Below the pieces are notes generated by a model. It was not told the origin of the DNA. It searched no databases and saw only the letters and a program-made list of their open reading frames with translations. 53,974 nt of DNA from Thermoanaerobaculia bacterium (GTDB taxonomy: Bacteria; Acidobacteriota; Thermoanaerobaculia; UBA5066). This document shows positions 3,482 to 42,733 of the stretch, one piece after another (position 1 is the first letter of the stretch; every line of letters starts with the position of its first letter). The stretch is taken from positions 1 through 53,974 of the forward strand of contig JBBRRY010000027.1 in NCBI GenBank assembly GCA_038245905.1, given 5' to 3'. The position numbers and the translations under genes are program-made.

Positions 3482-3586
3482 CTCGAGAACGGATTAAAGC
3501 AGAATGGGTGACATCGATGCGCATCGGCCACAGCCGGGCCGAGCGCCCGCGCCTCGCATGCCGTTGTTCACCCGGGCTAGAGCTTG

Positions 3587-3727
3587 GCGGGCCTGCACGA
3601 CCGTGCGAACCGGCCGCGGAGCTCGCCGAGGCGCACCTCGGAAATTCTCCGTGGAAGGGTGCTCGAGCTTCGCCAGAAGCGCCTCGTGGAGCGCCAGATC
3701 TCCGAGACGATCGGGTGGCTCACATAG
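3587..3727 (+). mobile_element. IS481-family transposase fragment (remnant)
   Basis: Hand translation [43 protein letters not shown] resembles the IS481 GL.DRS.RP..SP.RT...I..LR...IA..LG segment; no start and no DDE domain. Confidence 0.6.
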
Positions 3728-3990
3728 ACGAGTCGCCGGACTCTGTCGCCGAAGGCCTCCACGCGATGCAACGCGGCCTGAGGAGCCTGCTCGAGGCCGA
3801 GGGTGTGACGCCCTTTGAGAGCGTCGGCGAGCCCTTCGATCCGACACGCCACGAGGCCATCGCGACCGTCCGGGACGCCGGGAGCGTCCCGGACACCGTC
3901 GTCGACGAACAGGGCCGCGGCTACCTCTGGAACGGCGAGATCCTCCGTGTGGCTCGGGTGCGGGTCGCGGAACGGGACGCGCGGACCTGA
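3715..3990 (+). pseudogene. grpE: GrpE nucleotide exchange factor, C-terminal fragment
   Basis: [37 protein letters not shown]...[24 protein letters not shown]; the N-terminal helix is missing. Confidence 0.82.
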
Positions 3991-3993
3991 CGG

Positions 3994-5114
3994 GTAGAGC
4001 GTCGCCGAGCCGATCCGGAGCTGGTCGGCCGTGCGCGTTTGGTTCCCGTCGTTCAGGTCCAGAGCCGCGAGGATGTACTCCTTCTCGATCTCGTCGAGAG
4101 GTTGCACCACCCCGGCCGCGGAAACGGGCGTTCGGAAGGCCTGGCGCACCTCCTCGGGGAGGTCCTCGAGCTCGACGCGGCTTCCGCGCGCAAGCGCGAC
4201 CGCGCGTTCCATCGCGTTCTCGAGCTCCCGGACGTTGCCCGGCCACTCGTAGCGCAGGAGCTGGTCTGCGGCGCCCAGGGCGAGACCCTCGATCTTGCGC
4301 TTCATCCGGAGCGCCGCGTCCGCGAGGAGGACGCGGGCGAGCGGCAGGACGTCGTCCCGGCGCTCGCGAAGAGGCGGCACGTGCAGCTCGACGACCTTCA
4401 GCCGGTAATAGAGGTCCTGGCGGAAGGCGCCGCCCGCGACGCCGTGGGCGAGGTCGCGGTTCGTGGCGGCCAGGACGCGGACGTCGATCTTGCGGCTCTT
4501 GTTCTCGCCGACCTCGTCCAGCAGAAGCGTTCCGCCGTTTGACGCCTCGAACAGCCCGGGCCGGTCATAGCTTGCGCCGGTGAACGCGCCCCGCGTGTGG
4601 CCGAAAAGCTCGCTCTCGAGGAGCGTCTCCGTGATGGCGCCGCAGTTCACCGCGATGAACGGCCCCGCCGCGCGGGCGGACTCGTCGTGGACGAGTCGCG
4701 CGCGACGCGGACAATCGCCCGGCGGTGTTCGTGGAGCTTCTCCTCGGCCGTCTTCAGCGTCGCGGTGACGCGGTCGAGCGAGACGTCGAGGCTCTCCTTG
4801 AGGCGGACCCTCTCGAAGAACTGCAGCTCCTCTGCTTTCGCGTCTCCCCACTCTTCGCGCGTGCGCCCCACGAGGTGGCACGCCGCATCGCCCTTACCCA
4901 CGCAGCGGTCCTCGAGGGCGTAGATCTCCTTGCCGTCGCTCCCCCCGCTGAGGTACCCGCTCGTCAGTCCGCAGATGGCCCAGCACGCGGGCACGTCCGA
5001 GCGGCCGAAGTGCAGGAGGTGCTGTTCCGCCTCGTACGAGGACTGGACCATCACCCCTTCCTTCGAAAGCGGGCCCGTGACTCCGGGCTCGATGTGGAAG
5101 AGGCCTTCGAGCGC
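3994..5114 (-). pseudogene. XylR/V4R-domain sigma-54 activator, truncated at both ends with two internal deletions
   Basis: V4R segment SYEAEQHL...PACWAICGLTSGYLS...[12 protein letters not shown]; AAA segment [31 protein letters not shown]; Fis HTH cut at IGSATLY. Walker A is absent and there is a frameshift at ~4700. Confidence 0.88.
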
Positions 5115-5867
5115 CGGATCGACTCGATCGCGCAGGCCTGGGCCGTGCTTTCGGGCGCGGGTCCCGCACGCTTCGCGGAGCGCGCGATGGATGCGGTGAG
5201 GACCCACCTCGTGAGGCGCGGACCGAGGGTCGTGCTCCTCCTCACGCCGCCCTTCGACCGGTCCGCGCAGGATCCCGGCTACATCAAGGGGTACCCGCCC
5301 GGCATCCGGGAGAACGGCGCCCAGTACACGCACGCGGCGCTGTGGGTCGTCATGGCGATGGCGAAGCTGGGCAGCGGCGACGAGGCGGTGGAGCTCTTCC
5401 ACATGCTCAATCCCGTCAACCACACGAGAACTCCCGCGGACGTCGAGCGCTACAAGGCCGAGCCGTATGTCATCGCCGGAGACGTTTACGGTGAGCCGCC
5501 GCACGCCGGACGCGGCGGCTGGACCTGGTACACGGGGTCCGCCGGCTGGATGTACCGTGCGGGTCTCGAAAGCATCCTCGGGCTGAGGCGGCGCGGCGCG
5601 ACGTTCGAGATGGATCCGTGTATCCCGTCGTCCTGGCCCGGTTTCGAGATCGCCTGGCGCTTCGGCCGGACGCGCTACGAGATCGCCGTCTCGAACCCGG
5701 AGGGCCGGTGCCGCGGGATCACGGAGGCGGATCTCGACGGCAAGTCCGTCGATTCCGGCACCATTCCGCTCGTCGACGACGGCGGCACCCACCAGGTGCG
5801 GCTGGTGCTGGGTAGCCGGAAGGGGATCGTCCGGCCGCTTGAAGCATCAGCAGGACGCGAGCGTTGA
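5115..5867 (+). pseudogene. GH94 phosphorylase / cyclic beta-1,2-glucan synthase (NdvB-like), C-terminal fragment
   Basis: RIDSIAQAWAVLSG...PGYIKGYPPGIRENGAQYTHAA...EPYVIAGDVY...GRGGWTWYTGSAGWMYR; begins abruptly with no start codon. Confidence 0.88.
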
Positions 5868-26897: not shown

Positions 26898-28061
26898 TCA
26901 GGCGCGCTCCGCGCGCACCTTCGCAACCGCGCGGGCAATCTCGTCGGCGGCCCGGTCGACTTCTTCCTCCGTCGTGAAGCGCCCGAGGCCGAAGCGGATC
27001 GACGCCTCGGCCTCGACGCGGGTGCGTCCGAGCGCGACGAGGACGTGGCTGGGTTCGGCCGACGCCGACGTGCAGGCGGACCCCGACGACACGGCGATGT
27101 CGCGCGCGTTCGACATGACGGCGTCCGCGGGCGCCCCCGCGATCGTCACGTTCAGGTTTCCCGGCAGGCAGAGGACCGGGTGGCCGTTCCGTGAGAGACC
27201 GTCCACGCGTTCCCGGAGCCGCTCCCAGAGCCGGTCGCGAAGGCCCGCGACCCTTTGCGATTCAGCCTGGCCCTCTGCACGCGCGATCTCGGCCGCGGCG
27301 CCGAATCCGACGATGCCCGGGACGTCGAGCGTTCCGGGCCGGAGGCCGCGCTCGTGGCCGCCGCCAAAGGACAGGGGCGCGAGCCGCACGCGCGGATTCA
27401 CGGCGCGCACGAAGAGCGCGCCCACGCCCTTCGGGCCGCACAGCTTGTGGGCCGAGAGCGACACGAGGTCGAGGCCGAGGCCGTGAACGTCCAGCGGGAC
27501 CTTCCCGAGCGCCTGGACGGCGTCCGTGTGGAAGACGATCCCGCGCTCCTTGCACACGCGCGCGATTTCACCGATGGGGTTCAGCGTGCCGATCTCGTTG
27601 TTCGCCGCCATGACGGACACGAGGACCGTCTCCTTCGTGAGGGCTTCCGCGACGGCTGCCGCGCTCGTCGTTCCCTCCGCGTCAGGCGGAAGGTACGTGA
27701 CCGAGAACCCCTCGGTCTCCAATCGGCGGCAGGGGTCGAGCACGGCGCGATGCTCGATCGCCGACGTGACGACGTGCGCCCCGGGGACCTGCCGCGCCCG
27801 CGCGGCGCCGAGGACGGCGAGGTTGTCCGCCTCGGTCGCGCCCGAGGTGAAGACGATCTCGCGCGGGTTCGCGCCGACGAGGCGCGCGACGGCCTCGCGC
27901 GCTGCGGTCACCGCGGCTTCCGCCCGCCAGCCGAAGGCGTGGCTCCTAGACGCGGCGTTCCCGAAATGCTCCGTGAAATACGGCCGCATCGCCTCGAAGA
28001 CGCGCGGATCGACCGGCGTCGTGGCGTGATAGTCGAGGTAGACGGGCGGTTTCGGTGTCAT
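26898..28061 (-). CDS. iscS: Cysteine desulfurase
   Basis: [34 protein letters not shown]. Confidence 0.93.
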
Positions 28062-28135
28062 GGGACGGCCGCGCGGCCATCCTCGGCCCCGCGCTCTGGG
28101 TTTGCAACCCGGGATGAGCGAAGATCGGAAGCGAA

Positions 28136-28420
28136 ATGCTCCACCTTCTCGTCGCGACCGTCGAACGGCATGACCTCCTCGACGAGCTCCGCGCGATCGC
28201 GCCGGCCACCACCACGTTCCTCGGCGAGCAGGGGCTGGAGAAGACCCTCGAGCGGCTCGGCCGGTCCGCGCGCATGGACGCGGTCGTCACGGATGCTCCG
28301 GAAGTCCTGATGGAGATCTACCACGAGATCCCGGGGGCGCTTCCCGTCTATCTCGCGCGGCCCGACGAGGACGCCGCGGCCGTCCTCGCGGGTCTCGACG
28401 CTCTCCTCGCGGCAGACTGA
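28136..28420 (+). CDS. Small hypothetical protein, possibly a degenerate receiver-like fold
   Basis: Fills the gap between iscS and thyX with GC3-rich codons; MDAVVTD segment. Confidence 0.55.
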
Positions 28421-34313: not shown

Positions 34314-37300
34314 TCAGGGCGCCGGTGTGAGCGCGTCCCAGAAATCGCAGGCGGCGGTGCGGATTCCGTCCCGTGCGGCGGCCGGGGCGTCCCAGACGAG
34401 CGTCGAATCGCGCGCCGCGTCGTAACGCGGCCACGCGGGAACGCCCGCGCCGTTCGGGTCCCCCGCGGCCGCGAGCCGGGCCCACGCCGCGTTCATCGCG
34501 TCCGAGAGGGCGCGCGCGGACGCGTCGGGCGTGTAGCCCGCAATCGCGGAGAAGCTGCCGAAGACGAACGGCAGCTCCACGCCGTGGATCGCACCATAGA
34601 GCCGGTTCGCCGGATACGAGAAGAAGTACCGGTAGACGGCGGGACTCCCGCCCGCGGCGGCGGCGCGCGCGATGCGCCGCGAGGGACAGACGAAGCGTGA
34701 GTCCGTCGTGAGCGCGACGTACGCCTTGCGCGGTGTCGCGTACGCGCTGGCCGGATACTGCGCGAGGACGAGCGGCGCGAGGATTCCGACCTGCGCCGTG
34801 ACGAGCGCGCGGTACTCGGACTCGGTCGTCAGGAGGGGCGCCGCCGCGCCCGTCTCGTCCGCGTTCGCGCCCACGGCGAAAGGAACCTTGTTGTGTGTCC
34901 CGTGCCCGAGCGCGGCCTCGGGCGACTCGGACAGCACGAAGCCGTCCACGGCGGGCCCCCAGAGCTGACCGGTCGACGAAACGACCGAGACGTCCGGCGG
35001 AAGCGCCTGGAGAAGCGCCTCGGGCGTCTTTCCGCGCATGCACGAGGCCGGATCTGCCGCGGCGGCACAGCCCGCGTTCGCCGTGAGCGTCCCGCCGAAC
35101 GTGACGAAGTCCGCGACGGGGCGCTGGTTACAACCGCCGCTCTCCATGAGCGCGGCCGAGAAGAGTCCCTTCGCGAGCGGCGAGGCGAGAAGGCTGCACG
35201 TGTTCACGGCGCCCGCGGACTCGCCGAAGATCGTCACGCGCGACGGATCGCCGCCGAACGCGGCCGCGTTGCGCTTCACCCAGCGGAGCGCGGCGAGGAG
35301 GTCGAAGAGCCCGTAGTTCCCCGCGCTGCCGCGGCGGTTCTCGGCCGCGAGGAACGGCTGCGCGAGCCAGCCGAACGAACTCAGCCGGTAGTTCGTCGTC
35401 ACGACGACCGCTCGGTTCTTGCCCGCGAAGACGCTACCGTCGTAGTAATCCCACGAGCCCGCGCCCTGCGCGTTTCCGCCGCCGTGGATGAAGAAGAGAA
35501 CGGGCAGCGGCGACGCGGGCGCGGCCGCTGGCGTGAAGACGTTGAGCGAGAGACAGCCCTCGGCTCCCGTAGTGGCGCCCGCGTCGTCGAGCTGCGGGCA
35601 GATTGGGCCGAACGCGGTCGCGTCCCGAACGCCGCTCCACGGCGCAGCCGGCGCGGGCGGGTGCCAGCGCAGGTCGCCCACGGGAGGCGCCGCGAACGGA
35701 ATCCCTCGATAAACGACGACTCCCGCCGCCGACGCGCCCCGCACGGCGCCCGACTCCGTGAGCACGGCGCCCGCGGGCGCTCCGACCTCGACCGTCGCGA
35801 ACGCCGACGGCGCACCCGCGCACGTGCCGGCCGGGAGCCAGCGATACGTCGTCGTGACGGCTGGAGTCACCGTAACGCTCCCGCCGGCGGCGACCGCTAG
35901 GTCGCCCGGCAGGATCCGTCCTCCGCCGGCCGACGATGTGTCCAGCCGCAGCACGACCGCGCTTCCGGCATCGACGCGCGCGGCGGAGGGCGTCAAGACC
36001 GGCGCGGCGGCGCAACCGGATGCGGGCGCCGTCCACGGCCTGAGGAGCACGGGATCGCCGGTCCCGTTGTCGATGACGCTCGCGTACGCGTCGAGCGAAC
36101 CGGAGACGACGGTGACCTCGGCCGCCGCGTCGGGCGGGATCGCGGCGCCGCCGAACCAGTCGGGCAGCGATCGCTGCACCCACCCTCCGGGCGCGACGTC
36201 GGTCGTGCTCCCGGCGAGGACCGCGCCGGCCGCCGAGCGGAGGCGCAGCGTCGCGCGCACGCCGCCGTCACCCGCGAGAATCGCGAGGTTCGTCCGGAAG
36301 CCGTTGGAGCCAGTGGCGTGCGTGAGGCCCGTGAACACGAGCGTGCGGCCCGGCCCCGAGAGCGCCTCGGCCGGCACGGGCTCCTGCGCGGCCGAGAACG
36401 TGCCGGCACGCCCGGCCGGGTCAACGTTGCGCGTCGAGGCGAGCGCGGCGAGACGCGCGCCGGACGACACGCGCACGGCGCCGGCGGATCCCTCCGGCAG
36501 GCCGAGGGCGCCGAGGACGTCGTCCACTTCGAGAACGCCGCGCGGCGGGACGAGTCGCGTCGCGCGGAGGACTGCGCCGATCCCGGCGCTCTCGAGCGTC
36601 GCCTCGACGGGCTCCGGCCCCGGGTTCACGAGGCGCAGCGCCGTTCGCCAGAGCGTTCCGTTCGCGCCGGGCGTTCGTGCGACACCGTCCGCGAGAAGGA
36701 TGAAAGGCGGGCCATCGGGATTCTCCGTCCGTCTTACGGGCGCGAGGATGCCGTCGCCCGTCACGTTGTCGACGACGGCTGCGTAGGCGGCCGCCGAGCC
36801 ACGGAGCACGGTCACCTCGACGCGGCCGAGCGGGATCTCCGGATTGGCCGCGATCTCGCTCACCGAGCGCTGCCAGAAGAGCGCGTCACCCGCGACGCGC
36901 TCCTCGCCGCGCACCAGGCCGCTGTCGTCGACGAGCGTCACGCGCGCTTCGCTGCCGGGCTCGAGGAGCGTGACCGCGACGTTCGTCCGGAAGCCCGTGC
37001 CCGCCGCCGCCGTGTGCGCGAGCCAGGCAGCGACACCCGATTCTCCCGCGCGCAGCGCGTCGCCTTGACGCATGGCCGTCAGCGCGAGGCCGAACGTCCC
37101 GCGCGGGTCCGCGACGTTCGCGGTCACGCCGCGGACGACGAGGGGCGATGCGGAGCGCACGGTGAGCGTGCCCGCTCCCGGTGCGGAGCTGAACAGGCTC
37201 GCAACGGCATCGTCGAAACGAAGCGTCGTGCGCGGCCCGACGGTCACGCGCGGGGTGGCGGACGACGGACCGGCCGGCGTGACGAGGCCGAGGTCCGCCG

Positions 37301-37484
37301 TGACCTCGACGTCCGAGGGGTTCGTGATCCAGACCGTCGAGACGAAGCGCGTCCCGGCGACACCGGCCGTGCTCGCGAGGCCCGGAAGGACGAGGCGCTC
37401 CTCCGCGCGCGCGGGGAAGGCGCGCACGAACGCGAGAGCGGCGAGAAGGACCGCGGTTCGGATCGAGCGGCGGCGCGCGGGCAT
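34314..37484 (-). CDS. Secreted type-B carboxylesterase with a duplicated N-terminal module
   Basis: YRGIPFAAPPVGDLRW, IHGGG, FGESAG, HGVEL; ~480-aa repeated N-terminal region. Confidence 0.9.
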   Translation of the reverse strand: MPARRRSIRTAVLLAALAFVRAFPARAEERLVLPGLASTAGVAGTRFVSTVWITNPSDVEVTADLGLVTPAGPSSATPRVTVGPRTTLRFDDAVASLFSSAPGAGTLTVRSASPLVVRGVTANVADPRGTFGLALTAMRQGDALRAGESGVAAWLAHTAAAGTGFRTNVAVTLLEPGSEARVTLVDDSGLVRGEERVAGDALFWQRSVSEIAANPEIPLGRVEVTVLRGSAAAYAAVVDNVTGDGILAPVRRTENPDGPPFILLADGVARTPGANGTLWRTALRLVNPGPEPVEATLESAGIGAVLRATRLVPPRGVLEVDDVLGALGLPEGSAGAVRVSSGARLAALASTRNVDPAGRAGTFSAAQEPVPAEALSGPGRTLVFTGLTHATGSNGFRTNLAILAGDGGVRATLRLRSAAGAVLAGSTTDVAPGGWVQRSLPDWFGGAAIPPDAAAEVTVVSGSLDAYASVIDNGTGDPVLLRPWTAPASGCAAAPVLTPSAARVDAGSAVVLRLDTSSAGGGRILPGDLAVAAGGSVTVTPAVTTTYRWLPAGTCAGAPSAFATVEVGAPAGAVLTESGAVRGASAAGVVVYRGIPFAAPPVGDLRWHPPAPAAPWSGVRDATAFGPICPQLDDAGATTGAEGCLSLNVFTPAAAPASPLPVLFFIHGGGNAQGAGSWDYYDGSVFAGKNRAVVVTTNYRLSSFGWLAQPFLAAENRRGSAGNYGLFDLLAALRWVKRNAAAFGGDPSRVTIFGESAGAVNTCSLLASPLAKGLFSAALMESGGCNQRPVADFVTFGGTLTANAGCAAAADPASCMRGKTPEALLQALPPDVSVVSSTGQLWGPAVDGFVLSESPEAALGHGTHNKVPFAVGANADETGAAAPLLTTESEYRALVTAQVGILAPLVLAQYPASAYATPRKAYVALTTDSRFVCPSRRIARAAAAGGSPAVYRYFFSYPANRLYGAIHGVELPFVFGSFSAIAGYTPDASARALSDAMNAAWARLAAAGDPNGAGVPAWPRYDAARDSTLVWDAPAAARDGIRTAACDFWDALTPAP

Positions 37485-37531
37485 CGTGCTTCTTCGACGT
37501 CTCCCCGAGATCTCCGGTTTACATCCCGCCG

Positions 37532-37993
37532 TCAGCGGACCGATGCGAGATCGGCCGCGACCTCTCCCGCGTGCTTTGCGGGCGAGACGGATTCGTAAAT
37601 TTTCGCGATCTTCCCCTTCGAGTCGATCAGGAACGACTTCCGCTTCGCGACGCCGAACGCCAGGCCGACGCCATAGAGCTCGATGACCTTCCCGTCCGCG
37701 TCCGCGAGGAGTCGGAACGTCAGCTTGTTCTTCTCGGCGAATTTCTTCTCGGCCTCGACGGTGTCTTTGGACACGCCGAGGACGACGACGTCCTTCGGGA
37801 GCTTCGGGCCTTCGTCACGGAAGGCCTGGGCTTCGACCGTTCAACCGGCGGTGTCGGCCTTCGGGAAGAAGTAGAGGACGACCCGTTTTCCGCGGAGACC
37901 CGCGAGGGAAACGGATTTTCCGTGCTGGTCCGGGAGCGTGAAAGCGGGGGCGGAAGCCCCGGGCTCGAGATGAGTTCCGGAAAAGAGTCCCAT
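37532..37993 (-). CDS. bcp: BCP/PrxQ peroxiredoxin with selenocysteine (UGA at codon 51)
   Basis: SD GGAGG and ATG 37993: MGLFSGTHLEPGASAPAFTLPDQHGKSVSLAGLRGKRVVLYFFPKADTAG-UGA-TVEAQAFRD...VLGVSKD...RKSFLID; continuous with ORF 37532..37774. Confidence 0.9.
37807..37826 (-). promoter_or_regulatory. Putative bacterial SECIS hairpin
   Basis: GGCCTTC-CGTGAC-GAAGGCC, a perfect 7-bp stem; the loop begins 21 nt after the UGA with G at loop position 2. Confidence 0.72.
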
Positions 37994-38025
37994 GGTGTCG
38001 CCTCCCCGCTCAGGGTAACGGAAAT

Positions 38026-40539
38026 CTACGACTTGGAGCTGCCGAGCACTTCGCGGACCTTGTTCGTCAACCCGAGGGGAGTGAAGGGCTTCTGGAGAAA
38101 CTCCACTCCGGCCTCGAGGAGCCCATGGTGCGCGATCGCATCGTCGGTGTAGCCCGACATATACAACACAAGGAGGTCGGGCCTCTGGCGGAGCAGCCGC
38201 TCCGCGAGCTCCGGACCCCTCACGCCCGGCATCACGACGTCGGTCAGGAGGAGGTGGATCGGTCCCGCGTGGCTGCCGGAAATCTGTTCGGCGTCGGCCG
38301 GGCCCTCCGCGAGAAGAACCGTATAGCCGGCCTTTTGCAGGATGAGATTCGTCAGCTGCCGGATCGCCGCCTCGTCCTCGACGACGAGGATGGTCTCGAA
38401 CCCCGCGCGCAGCGCCGGGCGGACCCCCGAGCTCGGGCGCCGGACGGCGGCATCGCCGGCGACGCGCGGGAGATAGATCTTGAACGTCGTGCCCCGCCCC
38501 GGCTCGCTGTACACGCCGATCTCGCCGCCGCTCTGGTGCACGATTCCGTGAACGGTCGAGAGGCCGAGGCCGGTCCCCTTCCCCGCCTCTTTCGTCGTGA
38601 AGAAGGGCTCGAAGATGCGCTTCTGCGTCTCCGCGTCCATCCCCGTCCCGGTGTCGGAAATTGCAAGGAGTACGTAGCTCCCGGCCTCGACTTCGGCGTG
38701 CGTGTACGCAAACGCGCCGTCGAGCTCCACATTTGCGAGCTCGAGGATCAGGCTGCCGCCCTTCGGCATGGCGTCCCGAGCGTTGACGGCGAGGTTCATG
38801 ACGACCTGCTCCATCTGACCGCGGTCCGCCTTCACCCGTCCGAGGTTCGGAGGCACGACGACCTTCACCTTGATTTCCTCGCCAATGAGGCGTTCCACCA
38901 GGTTCGACAATCCGTTGACCACCTCGCCCAGATCGAGGACCTCGGGGATCAGCGTCTGTCTGCGGCTGAAGGCGAGGAGCTGCCGGGTCAGCGTGGCGGC
39001 CCTCTCGCCCGCCCGCTGAACTTCCTCCGCCGCCTCGCGCAAGGGACCCGGCTCGAGCCCTTGAAGTAGAACCTCGCCGTAGCCGAACATGACCGTGAGG
39101 AGATTGTTGAAGTCGTGCGCCACGCCGCCCGCGAGTCGCCCGACCGCCTCCATCTTCTGGGACTGCCGGAATTGCTCCTCCAGGCGGCGCTTGTCGGTGA
39201 TGTCGATGGAAATGCCAACGGCGCGTGCAGCGCCATGCTCACCAAGGGAGACATGTCCGATGTTGTTCATCGTGTGCACGGTGCCGTCCGGGCGAATCGC
39301 CCGGTGTTCCACCGAGAAGTCGCCGCCGGACTTCAGCACATTCTCGACCGCCGCTCGGACCAGGCTCCGATCGTCGGGATGGATGCGCTCGACGAACGCC
39401 TCGAACGTCCCCGCAAAGGTCCCCGGCTGCAGACCGTATTGAGCCTCGAGGATTTCGGACCATTGGGCAGCGCCGGTGCCGAAGTCCATGTCCCAGATGC
39501 CGACGTTTGCGCTGCGCAGGGTGAATCCGATGCGCTCCTCGCTCTCCCGAAGGAGACCGACCGCGTCCCGCAGCTGCTGTTCCGTGCGCTTGCGGTCCGT
39601 GACGTCGATGAACATCAGGATGCGCACCGGCTCGCCGACGTCTCGCAAAGCGATCGACTCCATAGACAGGAGCACGTCCCGGGTTTCCCCGGACTTGCGG
39701 CGGAACGTGGCCTCGAAGCCGATCGCGCGCCCGTCGGCGCTCATGACGTCGACAAGGCGCTGCCGATCCGCGGGATCGGCCCACAATCCCAGGTCCTCCG
39801 CGTTGTGGCCGACAAGCTCCGCACGCGAATACCCGGAGAACTCGGTGGACCGCCCGTTCACCTCGAGGATGTCGCCGTTCGAAGTCGTGATCGCGATCGG
39901 GATGGGGCTGGCCTCGAACACGCGCGCAAACCGCTCTTCCGTGCTCCGGCGCGCTTCCTCCAGCCTGCGTTTTTCGGTGATGTCCGTCCCCATCACGAGA
40001 GAGCCGGCGAAGGTGCCGTCCGAGCCCATTACGGGACTTGCATTGACGCTCGCCCAGAGGGTCGTGCCGTCCTTCCTCAGGAGCTCCATCTCACGACGCT
40101 CCGCGACGCCCTGCCGGCGCCGCTCGAAACCCCGCCGGGCTTCGGCGCGCGCGGACGGGGCCAGGAAGTCCTCGGCGGAACGCCCGATCATCTCCGGTAC
40201 GGTGTAGTCGAGCATCGACGCCACCCGCTCGTTCGCGAAAGTGGTCACCATGTTCGCGTCGGCCGTCCAGATGCCCTCGTCGGTCGTCGTCACGATCGTC
40301 CGGTACCGCTCTTCGCTCTCGCGGAGCGCCGCCTGGGCCGCTCGGAGAAGAAGCGCCCCGCCTCCCGAGCGGTCGACGATGGCATCGACCTGGCCAGACC
40401 GAAGCGCTTCGCTCGCGGACTGCTCCTCGGAGAGGCGATGCCGCATCTCCTCGATCTCCCGCTCCAGCTCCACGATCCTCGCGCGGAGAGACTCGTTCTC
40501 TTTCTGAAAATCCGCGGGCGAGGAGCGCTGCGGCGTCAC
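38026..40539 (-). CDS. Hybrid histidine kinase (coiled coil, 3 PAS, HisKA, HATPase, receiver)
   Basis: [59 protein letters not shown]. Confidence 0.95.
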
Positions 40540-40853
40540 GGCACGACGCCCAGGGCGAGGAGCACCGCCCCATGGTTGCTCAGGTTTCCGACGACGCGCC
40601 GAACGGGAAGCGGAGCGAGGCGCACGAGCGTGGGCGAGAGGAGGACGCCGTCCGCAATCCCGCGCAGGGGCTCCTTGAGGAGATCGACGATCGTGATCTC
40701 CACCGATTGACCCGAGGCTTCACCGCCCGGAAACAGGATTTCGAGGTTGCGGATCGCGGCGAGGGAATTCGGAGCCTCGCCCACGATGTAGAGCCGGAGC
40801 AACAGACGCTCACGGGCTTCGGGCACCGGCTTCGCGGGATTCTGCCTGCTCAA
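40536..40853 (-). CDS. kaiB: KaiB-like circadian clock protein
   Basis: LRLYIVGEAPNSLAAIRNL...VDLLKEP...SPTLVR..PLPVRRVVGNLS. Confidence 0.9.
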   Translation of the reverse strand: MSRQNPAKPVPEARERLLLRLYIVGEAPNSLAAIRNLEILFPGGEASGQSVEITIVDLLKEPLRGIADGVLLSPTLVRLAPLPVRRVVGNLSNHGAVLLALGVVP

Positions 40854-42574
40854 GTCTTGCGCCGAGGCGGCCGCGCGGGGGCGCTTCCCTTCCCGGTCGA
40901 GCGCCCTCGCCGCATTCTGCGGATCTCACCCGCATGCATCGCTCGGGTTCCGACGTCGCCGGCCCTCTCCCCTCTCATCCGCTTCAGGTCCTGCTCCCTG
41001 TCGTCCCGTTCCTGGCGAAGCGCTTCCAGGCGGGACGTGAGATCGGCGACGGATTCCTCCGTGAGCCGCCGCTTCTCCTCGAGCGCGCGCGCGTCCTTCA
41101 GCCGGGCGGCCCGCTCCTGCTCCTCACGCTCCATGCGAAGCGTCCCCATGAGGACCGCGCCACCCGCCGTGTAGACGTCGGTCAGGTGGAGCCCACGCTT
41201 CGAGAGCAGCAGCTCGCGCACCTGGTTGGAGTGCGCCATTCCCCGCGACTTAATGATCGTGAGCCCGCGGTTCCGCTCCCCTCCCTGGATCGCGTAGGAC
41301 AAGTGGATCCACGAATCAGCGATCGTGGAGACGCTCGCGGACGAGGCCTCGCGAAGGCCGTCGAATCCCTCGAGAAGGCTCGTCAGCACGGTCGTGATGT
41401 TGAGTCTCCTCTCGAGCGCCATGAAGCGGTCGAGGTTGCCTCGAGGCTGGGTGCGGCCCCCGTTGTTCGTGAGCGCAGAGAGCGGGTCGATGACGAGGCA
41501 ACGGCTCCGGTGCGCATCGAGCAGCGACCGGATCTGCATGAGGTGCTCCTCGGCCGGTCGCGCGCCCGCGTGCGCCGAATACATCCGGAGCCGGCCGGAC
41601 TCGAGGTGGCGGTCGAGATGAATTCCGACGGAGTGGAGGTTTCGGACCACTTGGGCCGATCCCTCGTCGAAGCTCACGAAGAGAGTGTTCTCCTTGCGGC
41701 GGCAGGCGGCGTCGGCGAACGCTCCCGCGAGAATCGATTTCGCGGTGCCGGGGGCTCCCGAGATCAGCACGCACGTGCCCCGGAAATAGCCGCCCCCGAG
41801 CATCGCATCGAGGTCGGGGACACCGCTCGAAACGCGTTCCGGGGAGACCTTGTGATCGAGCGAGTCCGAGGCGAATCCCGCGACCTCGATGCCCCGGGAG
41901 GTCACCACGATGGGAACCTCGTTGCACGAGGCTTTCCCGCCCCGGTACTTGAGGATCTGGAGATACCGGCTCGCGACGGTATTCACGAGGCGGTGCTGGA
42001 GGAGAACCACGCAGTCCGCCAGATACTGGAGGAATCCGTAGCGCGGCGAGAGCGTGGGGTCGGCCTGTCCGATTTTCGATGTGATGATTCCCGTGAGGCC
42101 GCTTTCGTAAAGCCATTGGTGCAGCCGGAGAAGCTCGACGCGCTCGGCCGCGGGATCGTCGAGCTGCGCGAGCAGCATGTCGATGCCGTCGAACACGATC
42201 CGGCGCGCGCCAAGCTCCTTTGCCTTGGCCGAAAGGCCCGCGAGGAGGCCCGCGAGGTCGAACGCGCCCCCCTGAACGGTCGCGGTGTCGAGATGGGCAT
42301 CGAGGAGGAACAACCGATCCTTCTGAAGCCGGCGAAGATCCCAGCCGAAGGCGCTCGCGTTCGCGACGATCTCCCGAGAGCGCTCCTCGAAGGCCACGAA
42401 GATGCCTGGCTCATTCGCCCGCCGCGCGCCCTCCACGAGAATCTGAAGCGCCAGAATCGTCTTCCCGCAACCCGGTCCGCCGACGAAGAGCGTCGTGCGC
42501 CCGCGCGGCAGCCCGCCGTCGGTCAGCGTGTCGAGACCCGGCACGAAGGTCTGAAGGCGGTTTGAAACCTTCAT
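40850..42574 (-). CDS. kaiC: Circadian clock protein KaiC (double RecA domain)
   Basis: Walker A GGPGCGKT and GAPGTAKS, VAFEE, KYRG, VSTIADSW (ST phosphosite position), IKSRGMAHSNQVRE, C-terminal coiled coil. Confidence 0.95.
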   Translation of the reverse strand: MKVSNRLQTFVPGLDTLTDGGLPRGRTTLFVGGPGCGKTILALQILVEGARRANEPGIFVAFEERSREIVANASAFGWDLRRLQKDRLFLLDAHLDTATVQGGAFDLAGLLAGLSAKAKELGARRIVFDGIDMLLAQLDDPAAERVELLRLHQWLYESGLTGIITSKIGQADPTLSPRYGFLQYLADCVVLLQHRLVNTVASRYLQILKYRGGKASCNEVPIVVTSRGIEVAGFASDSLDHKVSPERVSSGVPDLDAMLGGGYFRGTCVLISGAPGTAKSILAGAFADAACRRKENTLFVSFDEGSAQVVRNLHSVGIHLDRHLESGRLRMYSAHAGARPAEEHLMQIRSLLDAHRSRCLVIDPLSALTNNGGRTQPRGNLDRFMALERRLNITTVLTSLLEGFDGLREASSASVSTIADSWIHLSYAIQGGERNRGLTIIKSRGMAHSNQVRELLLSKRGLHLTDVYTAGGAVLMGTLRMEREEQERAARLKDARALEEKRRLTEESVADLTSRLEALRQERDDREQDLKRMRGERAGDVGTRAMHAGEIRRMRRGRSTGKGSAPARPPRRKT

Positions 42575-42615
42575 AACCCAACGATACGCCTATCGTTCCA
42601 AAAGGAGTGTCGCGC

Positions 42616-42656: not shown

Positions 42657-42733
<77 letters not shown>

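Follow-up and report, generated by a model that had tools for sequence, protein, structure and literature searches.

A conserved in-frame UGA at the active site of a cysteine-free BCP/PrxQ-type peroxiredoxin gene in Thermoanaerobaculia, a probable selenocysteine codon

A minus-strand gene on contig JBBRRY010000027.1 of the Thermoanaerobaculia bacterium assembly GCA_038245905.1 (Acidobacteriota) very probably encodes a peroxiredoxin of the BCP/PrxQ subfamily in which an in-frame UGA is decoded as selenocysteine (Sec). We analyzed the 53,974 nucleotides of this contig, referred to as the window, together with related loci from other genomes. The first-pass annotation of the window had proposed a cysteine-free, single-Sec (1-Sec) BCP/PrxQ protein with a selenocysteine insertion sequence (SECIS) located 3' of the UGA, and this proposal is supported by the conservation of the UGA, the conservation of a hairpin downstream of it, and the pairing of Cys and UGA codons among homologues. 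The same annotation spoke of a hidden selenoprotein. The gene is hidden in that gene callers truncate it, but its novelty was overstated, given that the TxxU peroxiredoxin family is long established. The gene adds one more member, from a lineage new to it, to a selenoprotein family known for two decades.

Coding frame, protein family and active site

The frame of the gene is open from its ATG to its terminal stop except for one internal TGA at codon 51, and reading through this codon yields a product of 153 residues (Table 1). The complete BCP of that length and the Shine-Dalgarno sequence described at first pass are therefore both present in the window. All 19 relatives examined have GGAGG ahead of the ATG, visible only as GAGG in L002, where the locus begins 11 nt before the gene. 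The predicted protein has no Cys at any of its 153 residues, and Gln56 occupies the usual resolving position, both as had been read from the translation at the outset.

Table 1. Positions of the peroxiredoxin gene and its sequence elements in the window
Feature	Positions	Strand	Description
Sec-containing BCP/PrxQ peroxiredoxin coding sequence (probable)	37532..37993	minus	153 codons plus terminal TGA 37534-37532
In-frame UGA, codon 51, proposed selenocysteine codon at the peroxidatic position	37841..37843	minus	aligned to the peroxidatic Cys in BCPs of solved structure
Shine-Dalgarno sequence GGAGG	38001..38005	minus	7 nt upstream of ATG 37993-37991; direct sequence reading
SECIS-like hairpin	37807..37826	minus	5' arm GGCCUUC 37826-37820, loop CGUGAC 37819-37814, 3' arm GAAGGCC 37813-37807
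Thr48 codon, T of the PxxxTxxU motif	37850..37852	minus	at least 90% in alignment A2; invariant in 19 orthologues
Gln56 codon, usual resolving-Cys position (five residues after the peroxidatic residue)	37826..37828	minus	hairpin stem starts at its last base
Arg118 codon, conserved catalytic Arg of peroxiredoxins	37640..37642	minus	31/31 in alignment A2; aligned with the Arg of solved BCPs

The mechanical list of open reading frames (ORFs) for the window gives only two pieces of this gene, one of 50 codons (37841-37993) and one of 80 amino acids (37532-37774), the latter lying in the same frame and beginning at the first available GTG. The earlier statement that the ORF track reports the last 80 residues was thus accurate. 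The same truncation is found in the databases, where 35 of the best 120 matches are ORFs of 99 to 102 amino acids. Nearly all of these short entries (34 of 35) start M/V-E-A-x-A-F-R-D-E-G-P, two codons past the UGA; the remaining one, P0076 (99 amino acids), begins two residues later with V-C-A-F-R-V-E-G-P. Two further fragments of 84 amino acids are also among the best 120 matches. Truncation of this gene is routine in public gene calls, and the expectation that annotation pipelines would miss the gene was correct. Two full-length entries carry an ordinary residue at the UGA site, W in P0003 and C, together with Gln five positions later, in P0002; the C in P0002 may be a U displayed as C.

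The protein matches the Pfam AhpC-TSA domain (PF00578) with an E value of 3.7e-35 over residues 12-131, so that the domain spans the TGA. In HMMER alignments to solved structures, the best of which is Sulfolobus Bcp1 (E value, 1.2e-27), the TGA falls on the peroxidatic Cys. The active site reads P44-K-A-D-T48-A-G-U51, which is the PxxxTxxC motif with UGA in the place of Cys, and these alignments confirm the first-pass assignment of the TGA to exactly that Cys. An alignment of 31 sequences (A2) has P44, U51 and R118 invariant and T48 nearly so. The AlphaFold2 model built on it has a mean pLDDT of 91.5, places the peroxidatic residue at the start of a helix spanning residues 49-64, and finds its best fold matches in the Protein Data Bank among BCP, PrxQ and AhpE structures, with TM scores of 0.83 to 0.89. 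The protein thus has the AhpC/TSA domain, the active-site motif and the catalytic Arg of the BCP/PrxQ subfamily. It lacks the resolving Cys five residues after the peroxidatic residue, which is not required in 1-Cys BCPs, and given that there is no Cys anywhere, it groups with 1-Cys-type members and not with the CxxxxC type.

Codon 51 and selection among relatives

One scan of species-representative genomes provided 80 loci (L001 onward), in each of which we located the codon aligned to position 51. This codon is TGA in 24 loci and TGC or TGT in 55, and the region has been lost in one (L020). Of the TGA loci, 19 (L001-L019) belong to Acidobacteriota/Thermoanaerobaculia metagenome-assembled genomes (MAGs) and share 68 to 93% amino acid identity; the others come from Chthonomonadaceae (L053), Binatia (L055), Terriglobales (L063) and Gemmatimonadaceae (L064 and L065). 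The pairing of Cys with Sec in homologues is a criterion by which selenoproteins are recognized (excerpts of PMC13188914; this and the other papers cited by PMC number are represented here by parts of their text). Such pairing was a check suggested at first pass, and it is found here; a UGA confined to one strain was to count as a refutation, and the codon instead occurs in 19 related loci and in five loci of four other lineages.

For analysis at the codon level, we used 19 sequences, namely, the window gene and 18 loci, leaving out L018 (frameshift) and L020 (deletion). Codon 51 is TGA in all 19 and never TAA or TAG, whereas 9 of the sequences terminate with TGA and 10 with TAG. On average, pN/pS is 0.39 over codons 1-50 and 0.34 over codons 52-153. 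In the 50 codons upstream, 25, 20 and 41 columns vary at first, second and third codon positions, respectively; in the 102 downstream, 39, 35 and 86 do. There are no indels and no further stops. Purifying selection, variation concentrated at third positions, the absence of indels, and the conserved Shine-Dalgarno sequence and ATG all indicate that the upstream 50 codons are coding and, judging by this pattern of substitution, are translated in frame with the remainder.

These data bear directly on whether the gene is a pseudogene, in which a nonsense mutation changed TGC or TGT to TGA in a Cys-type BCP and left the two ORF pieces to decay. The change from Cys to TGA takes a single base, two relatives are broken (L020 has lost about 50 N-terminal codons and L018 is frameshifted), and no Sec machinery is found in the sequence searched, the window and the 80 loci. 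We nevertheless consider a pseudogene very improbable. A decaying gene would not be expected to keep TGA in every one of the 19 relatives that have the codon, down to 68% identity, or to hold codon 51 at TGA when its true stop is TGA in some sequences and TAG in others, and neither the pN/pS values, the mostly third-position variation and the lack of indels nor the conserved Shine-Dalgarno sequence and ATG fit with decay.

The short database entries raise another alternative, in which the true gene is the downstream piece only, about 101 amino acids starting two codons past the TGA, and the upstream 50 codons are a leader. This is how 35 of the best 120 matches are annotated. The start that it needs, codon 53, is GTG in just 9 of the 19 sequences; the others have ATC (6), GTC (2), GCG (1) or GCC (1). 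The window itself has GTC, and its first usable start consequently yields just 80 amino acids. A restart after the TGA therefore appears not to be a conserved option. The fragment would also be without Pro44, Thr48 and the peroxidatic residue, and the codons ahead of it evolve as coding sequence behind a conserved Shine-Dalgarno sequence and ATG of their own. We give this alternative even less credence than a pseudogene.

Least credible of all is a reassignment of UGA to sense throughout the genome (genetic code 4 or 25), in favor of which we can cite the open frame itself and nothing further. UGA serves as a stop in this genome, given that 22 of 30 window ORFs with high third-position GC content (GC3) end at TGA, as do the peroxiredoxin gene itself and 8 of 18 intact orthologues. 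A GC3-based scan of the window for TGA-interrupted coding frames gave no other single gene, and hence no other selenoprotein gene, at a low sensitivity, its GC3 threshold being too strict to recover even the peroxiredoxin gene (upstream GC3, about 0.72). Its three candidates were two antisense artifacts and one case of adjacent DoxX and pirin genes that share a frame.

In a quick maximum-likelihood tree of 79 proteins, which leaves out L018 and L020, the window protein lies inside a clade of 19 that is entirely of the Sec type (support by the SH-like approximate likelihood ratio test [SH-aLRT], 100). The tree needs at least three changes between Sec and Cys, two of which are forced by well-supported branches, and these repeated changes agree with the repeated Cys-to-Sec conversions described in PMC1794560. 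We also observed that L005 and L006, two contigs of one MAG, carry near-identical copies of the Sec-peroxiredoxin locus with the same downstream genes; this duplication may reflect strain heterogeneity or redundancy within the bin.

The downstream hairpin and decoding of the UGA

A hairpin with a perfect 7-bp stem and a 6-nt loop starts 14 nt past the UGA, as the first-pass annotation had described, and occurs once in the window. Its 20-mer, which was picked by hand, folds at -11.1 kcal/mol, an energy that none of 200 shuffles equaled, and the hairpin is present in the minimum free energy (MFE) and centroid folds of longer contexts. By itself, the hairpin is weak evidence, and it is conservation across species that raises it above chance. 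The 20-mer, with G or T allowed at loop position 3, occurs exactly once in each of L001 to L020, at the homologous place, and neither the rest of the window nor the other 62 loci contain it, so that it is not a dispersed repeat. A hairpin that was not conserved, together with a UGA confined to one strain, had been named as grounds for rejecting the selenoprotein, and this is not the situation in the 20 relatives. The only variable base of the element among the 19 sequences is loop position 3, which is U in 15 and G in 4, and these are the alternatives that the published bacterial SECIS (bSECIS) model allows.

Constraint on this segment also extends to synonymous sites. Among columns with an invariant, degenerate amino acid, 17 of 76 use one codon across all 19 sequences, and for the stem codons A57 (GCC), F58 (TTC), E61 (GAA) and G62 (GGC) the proportion is 4 of 4 (hypergeometric P = 0.0019); for codons 57-62 it is 5 of 6 (P = 0.0017), the stem columns in this test having been picked after the hairpin had been seen. 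Glu61 is encoded by GAA in 19 of 19 sequences, yet the ratio of GAG to GAA in these genes is 112:50. We observed synonymous invariance upstream of the UGA as well (37844-37862, minus strand), where codons 44, 46, 47 and 50 show no synonymous variation across the 19 sequences. Gly50 is GGT throughout, and GGT is the Gly codon that these genes use least. Over codons 44-62, 9 of 14 columns with an invariant residue use a single codon, compared with 17 of 76 overall (P = 2e-4). The sequence GAAGGCC of the hairpin's 3' arm recurs at codons 44-46; a pairing of the 5' arm with this upstream copy was considered and is absent from both the MFE and the centroid folds.

The bSECIS model in PMC13188914, as given in the excerpted text, calls for a loop of 3 to 9 nt on a stem of 4 to 16 bp, a G within the first two loop positions that is usually followed by G or U, a UGA-to-loop distance of 16 to 37 nt, and an MFE of at most -7.5 kcal/mol. 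The window element, with its 6-nt loop, 7-bp stem, loop start of CGU (CGG in some relatives), spacing of 21 nt and energy of -11.1 kcal/mol, agrees with the model on all four counts and fits the bSECISearch consensus, and a SECIS role is predicted for it from sequence. Its lower stem is weak and not conserved: the GAAGC/GCUUC pairing sometimes added by RNAfold is imperfect in most sequences and shows no convincing covariation, and we dropped it. In the other four Sec lineages, the hairpin differs in each and is centered about 18 to 20 nt past the UGA. Over the 48 nt that follow the codon, the fold z score averages -1.67 for 25 Sec-type sequences (20 of them close kin) versus -0.22 for 56 others, including L020.

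Several results weigh against Sec decoding through this hairpin. The folding check proposed at first pass, which agreed with the published model, also showed that the fold in context is no better than that of shuffled sequence: the z score is -1.02 for both the 44-nt and the 71-nt contexts, with 32 and 34 of 200 dinucleotide shuffles as good, respectively, and -0.67 for the 106-nt context, with 52 of 200 as good. Within the clade, none of the seven stem pairs varies, which leaves zero compensatory changes, and the stem partly encodes the conserved peptide A-F-R-D-E-G. A permissive Rfam scan of 37500-38050 returned no SECIS family; a match to CcsR1 was at chance level (11.5 bits; gathering score, 65.3) and was set aside. 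At the protein level, every curated NCBIfam cutoff was missed, the best being PRK09437, which reached 122.4 bits against a cutoff of 140 when scored with Cys substituted for Sec; by this score, the protein is a relative of E. coli Bcp and not an equivalog. Two loci of the clade are damaged. An Acidobacteriota MAG (L020, about positions 616-700) lacks about 50 codons at the N-terminal end, the Sec codon among them, through either gene decay or assembly collapse. A long-read MAG (L018, 10001-10457) has a frameshift near codon 36, which is likely a sequencing indel, given that its TGA and hairpin are intact. What remains of the gene in L020 is not in frame with the ATG; the locus keeps the hairpin 20-mer and its synteny (kinase ... 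DivIC-enolase).

Also on this side stands the search for the Sec machinery, which covered a few percent of each genome. A tblastn search with E. coli K-12 SelA (partial query, 380 of 463 residues), SelB and SelD found no homologue in the window and the 80 loci (1.28 Mb), the sole match being a weak one to a GTPase in a Cys-type locus, and ARAGORN found no tRNA-Sec in the window and 25 loci, the only tRNA genes it reported being tRNA-Met in both and tRNA-Asn in the window. No SelA, SelB or SelD was detected by Pfam among 43 window ORFs; an Aminotran_5 protein (26901-28286) is not diagnostic of Sec machinery. Given that the sequence sampled is a small part of each genome, the machinery is not to be read as absent. 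Acidobacteria are credited with three selenoprotein families and four selenoproteins in PMC1794560, and an Acidobacteriota isolate is among the Sec-utilizing test genomes in PMC12013277, both according to the excerpted text.

The machinery result leaves some room for UGA being read through without Sec, by a near-cognate Trp- or Cys-tRNA or a suppressor tRNA, with the hairpin as a generic stimulator and Cys or Trp at position 51. The W at this site in P0003 would fit such a reading, although it reflects only pipeline translation. We regard read-through of this kind as improbable, if less so than a pseudogene. A peroxiredoxin with Trp at the peroxidatic position would be inactive, and Cys is more cheaply encoded by TGC or TGT, which 55 homologues use. 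The hairpin fits a SelB-type bSECIS in loop content and spacing, and several phyla with reported Sec use show the Cys/UGA pattern again.

With Sec decoding as the preferred explanation, we infer that the hairpin serves as a bacterial SECIS on the mRNA. SelB carrying Sec-tRNA(Sec) would bind the hairpin loop and deliver Sec while the ribosome is at UGA51, after which translation would run on to the terminal stop. The selenium-containing side chain of Sec51, positioned at the start of the helix with Pro44, Thr48 and Arg118, would attack the peroxide and become a selenenic acid. Given that the protein is Cys-free, no internal resolving step is possible and an external thiol reductant would be needed; thioredoxin, glutaredoxin or a low-molecular-weight thiol may reduce the selenenic acid directly, which would make this a 1-Sec cycle.

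Known peroxiredoxins, the resolving cysteine and gene neighborhood

Sec-containing peroxiredoxins are recorded under COG1225, which we take to be the Bcp group. It is under this number that Sec-peroxiredoxin is listed in the Sargasso Sea survey (excerpt of PMC1088965). According to the parts of the other surveys available, the TxxU peroxiredoxin (PF00578) is among the experimentally supported prokaryotic selenoprotein families (PMC13188914), and the peroxiredoxin family has undergone five Cys-to-Sec events, with 12 Sec-peroxiredoxin genes in 2006 genomes and with Acidobacteria among the holders of selenoproteins (PMC1794560). The window protein has the same PF00578 domain, PxxxTxxU site and predicted Sec position as this TxxU family, in which Cys homologues are widespread and Cys-to-Sec conversion has been repeated (excerpts of PMC13188914, PMC1794560 and PMC1088965); the window clade differs from it as a new lineage that is Cys-free and has a 20-nt hairpin of its own.

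Two other Sec-containing proteins of the superfamily are more distant, both described in the excerpted text of PMC13188914. PrxU of Eubacterium acidaminophilum (NF040737), which has been characterized biochemically, shares Sec at the peroxidatic position but belongs to another subfamily, the window protein scoring 45.6 bits against a cutoff of 270 on a profile of 233 positions compared with its own 153 residues. The thiol peroxidase Prx-SUH (NF045827) is Tpx-like with a CxxU site, whereas the window protein has TxxU and no Cys and scores 31.8 bits against a cutoff of 298. Cys-type BCP/PrxQ proteins (E. coli Bcp, Sulfolobus Bcp1, Xanthomonas PrxQ, Mycobacterium tuberculosis BcpB and the 1-Cys AhpE) have the same fold, with the TM scores given above, and have in common with the window protein the active-site Pro, Thr and Arg and a size of about 150 to 160 residues. 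They differ from it in having the peroxidatic Cys in place of Sec, and the window protein has neither the Cys five residues later nor any other, so that recycling must follow a 1-Cys-type route, as in AhpE. A literature search, with supplementary tables outside its scope, found no link between Thermoanaerobaculia and selenocysteine. Searches for "peroxiredoxin Q" with selenocysteine returned only unrelated work, mainly on plants, and those for PrxQ with selenocysteine or selenoprotein returned nothing bacterial. The phrase "bacterioferritin comigratory protein" was absent from the main text of every selenoproteome paper among those searched, its sole occurrence being in a paper on an Acanthamoeba thioredoxin.

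The interest of the gene lies mainly in annotation and ecology. Public gene calls systematically cut short an antioxidant enzyme that is conserved in a poorly studied lineage of soils and sediments, and metabolic reconstructions will consequently miss both a peroxidase and the selenium requirement it implies. The gene also marks these MAGs as probable selenocysteine users. General knowledge of selenoproteins is unchanged by it. There is a modest biochemical angle in the Cys-free 1-Sec design, which, together with a compact 20-nt SECIS, would provide, if true, a clean model for Sec versus Cys peroxidatic chemistry that could also be used to compare resistance to overoxidation.

The residue five positions after the peroxidatic one differs between the two types. 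Among the 24 Sec-type rows, it is Q in 13, K in 6, R in 2, V in 1 and C in 2, so that 22 of 24 lack Cys, and among the 55 Cys-type rows it is C in 54 and Q in 1 (L079). On the tree, these counts amount to only two or three independent contrasts, with which a sign test is unable to reach significance, and the association of the Sec switch with loss of this Cys is suggestive, not demonstrated, at the level of sequence comparison. Among the truncated database forms of the Sec clade, 3 of 35 retain Cys at this position. There are also CxxxxC forms with an identity of 60 to 72%. Cys-type forms with Gln or Lys there also exist (P0081, P0090, P0095, P0097 and L079), given which the loss of the resolving Cys may predate the Sec switch.

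Sec-type glutathione peroxidases are not known to carry the resolving Cys that their Cys-type, thioredoxin-dependent homologues have. We considered that in the BCP family, too, replacement of the peroxidatic Cys by Sec could be coupled with loss of the resolving Cys, changing an internal-disulfide cycle into one in which a bare selenenic acid is reduced by an outside thiol, and that each Sec lineage could have made its own SECIS from the codons for A-x-F-R-D. Thermoanaerobaculia would then be the extreme case, with a vertically inherited, Cys-free 1-Sec enzyme in a fixed housekeeping neighborhood (tRNA-Met ... DivIC-enolase). We offer this as a tentative hypothesis and hold it to be somewhat more doubtful than probable.

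Upstream of the Sec-peroxiredoxin gene in the window lies a minus-strand cluster of kaiC, kaiB and a hybrid histidine kinase gene (PAS, HisKA, HATPase and receiver domains; 38026-42589). It sits between a plus-strand tRNA-Met gene (42657-42733) and the peroxiredoxin gene, ends 32 nt before the peroxiredoxin ATG, and is also present in L001, L016 and L020. The cluster looks like an insertion, given that tRNA-Met is about 80 nt from the peroxiredoxin gene in most relatives. A promoter and terminator consensus scan of 37300-38300 found none, including between the kinase and peroxiredoxin genes, which makes cotranscription of the two possible. A GTTACAGTG motif about 13 nt before the GGAGG is conserved upstream of the peroxiredoxin ATG in L004-L009, L012 and L017 and may be a -10-like promoter element; the window carries GTTACCCTG at this place.

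On the downstream side, a minus-strand gene (34314-37484) encodes a protein of 1,056 amino acids that has a signal-like stretch at its N terminus and a carboxylesterase domain (E value, 1.5e-103) at its C terminus. It stands between the peroxiredoxin gene and the DivIC-enolase pair only in the window, L001 and L008, and in most other relatives DivIC closely follows the peroxiredoxin gene. Elsewhere in the window, at 3580-5864, a minus-strand ORF for a sigma-54 activator matches its Pfam profile only from position 39 and overlaps a plus-strand ORF in which a GH94 catalytic domain is represented by its last third only (profile positions 257-420); these ORFs may be truncated genes or mark a junction.

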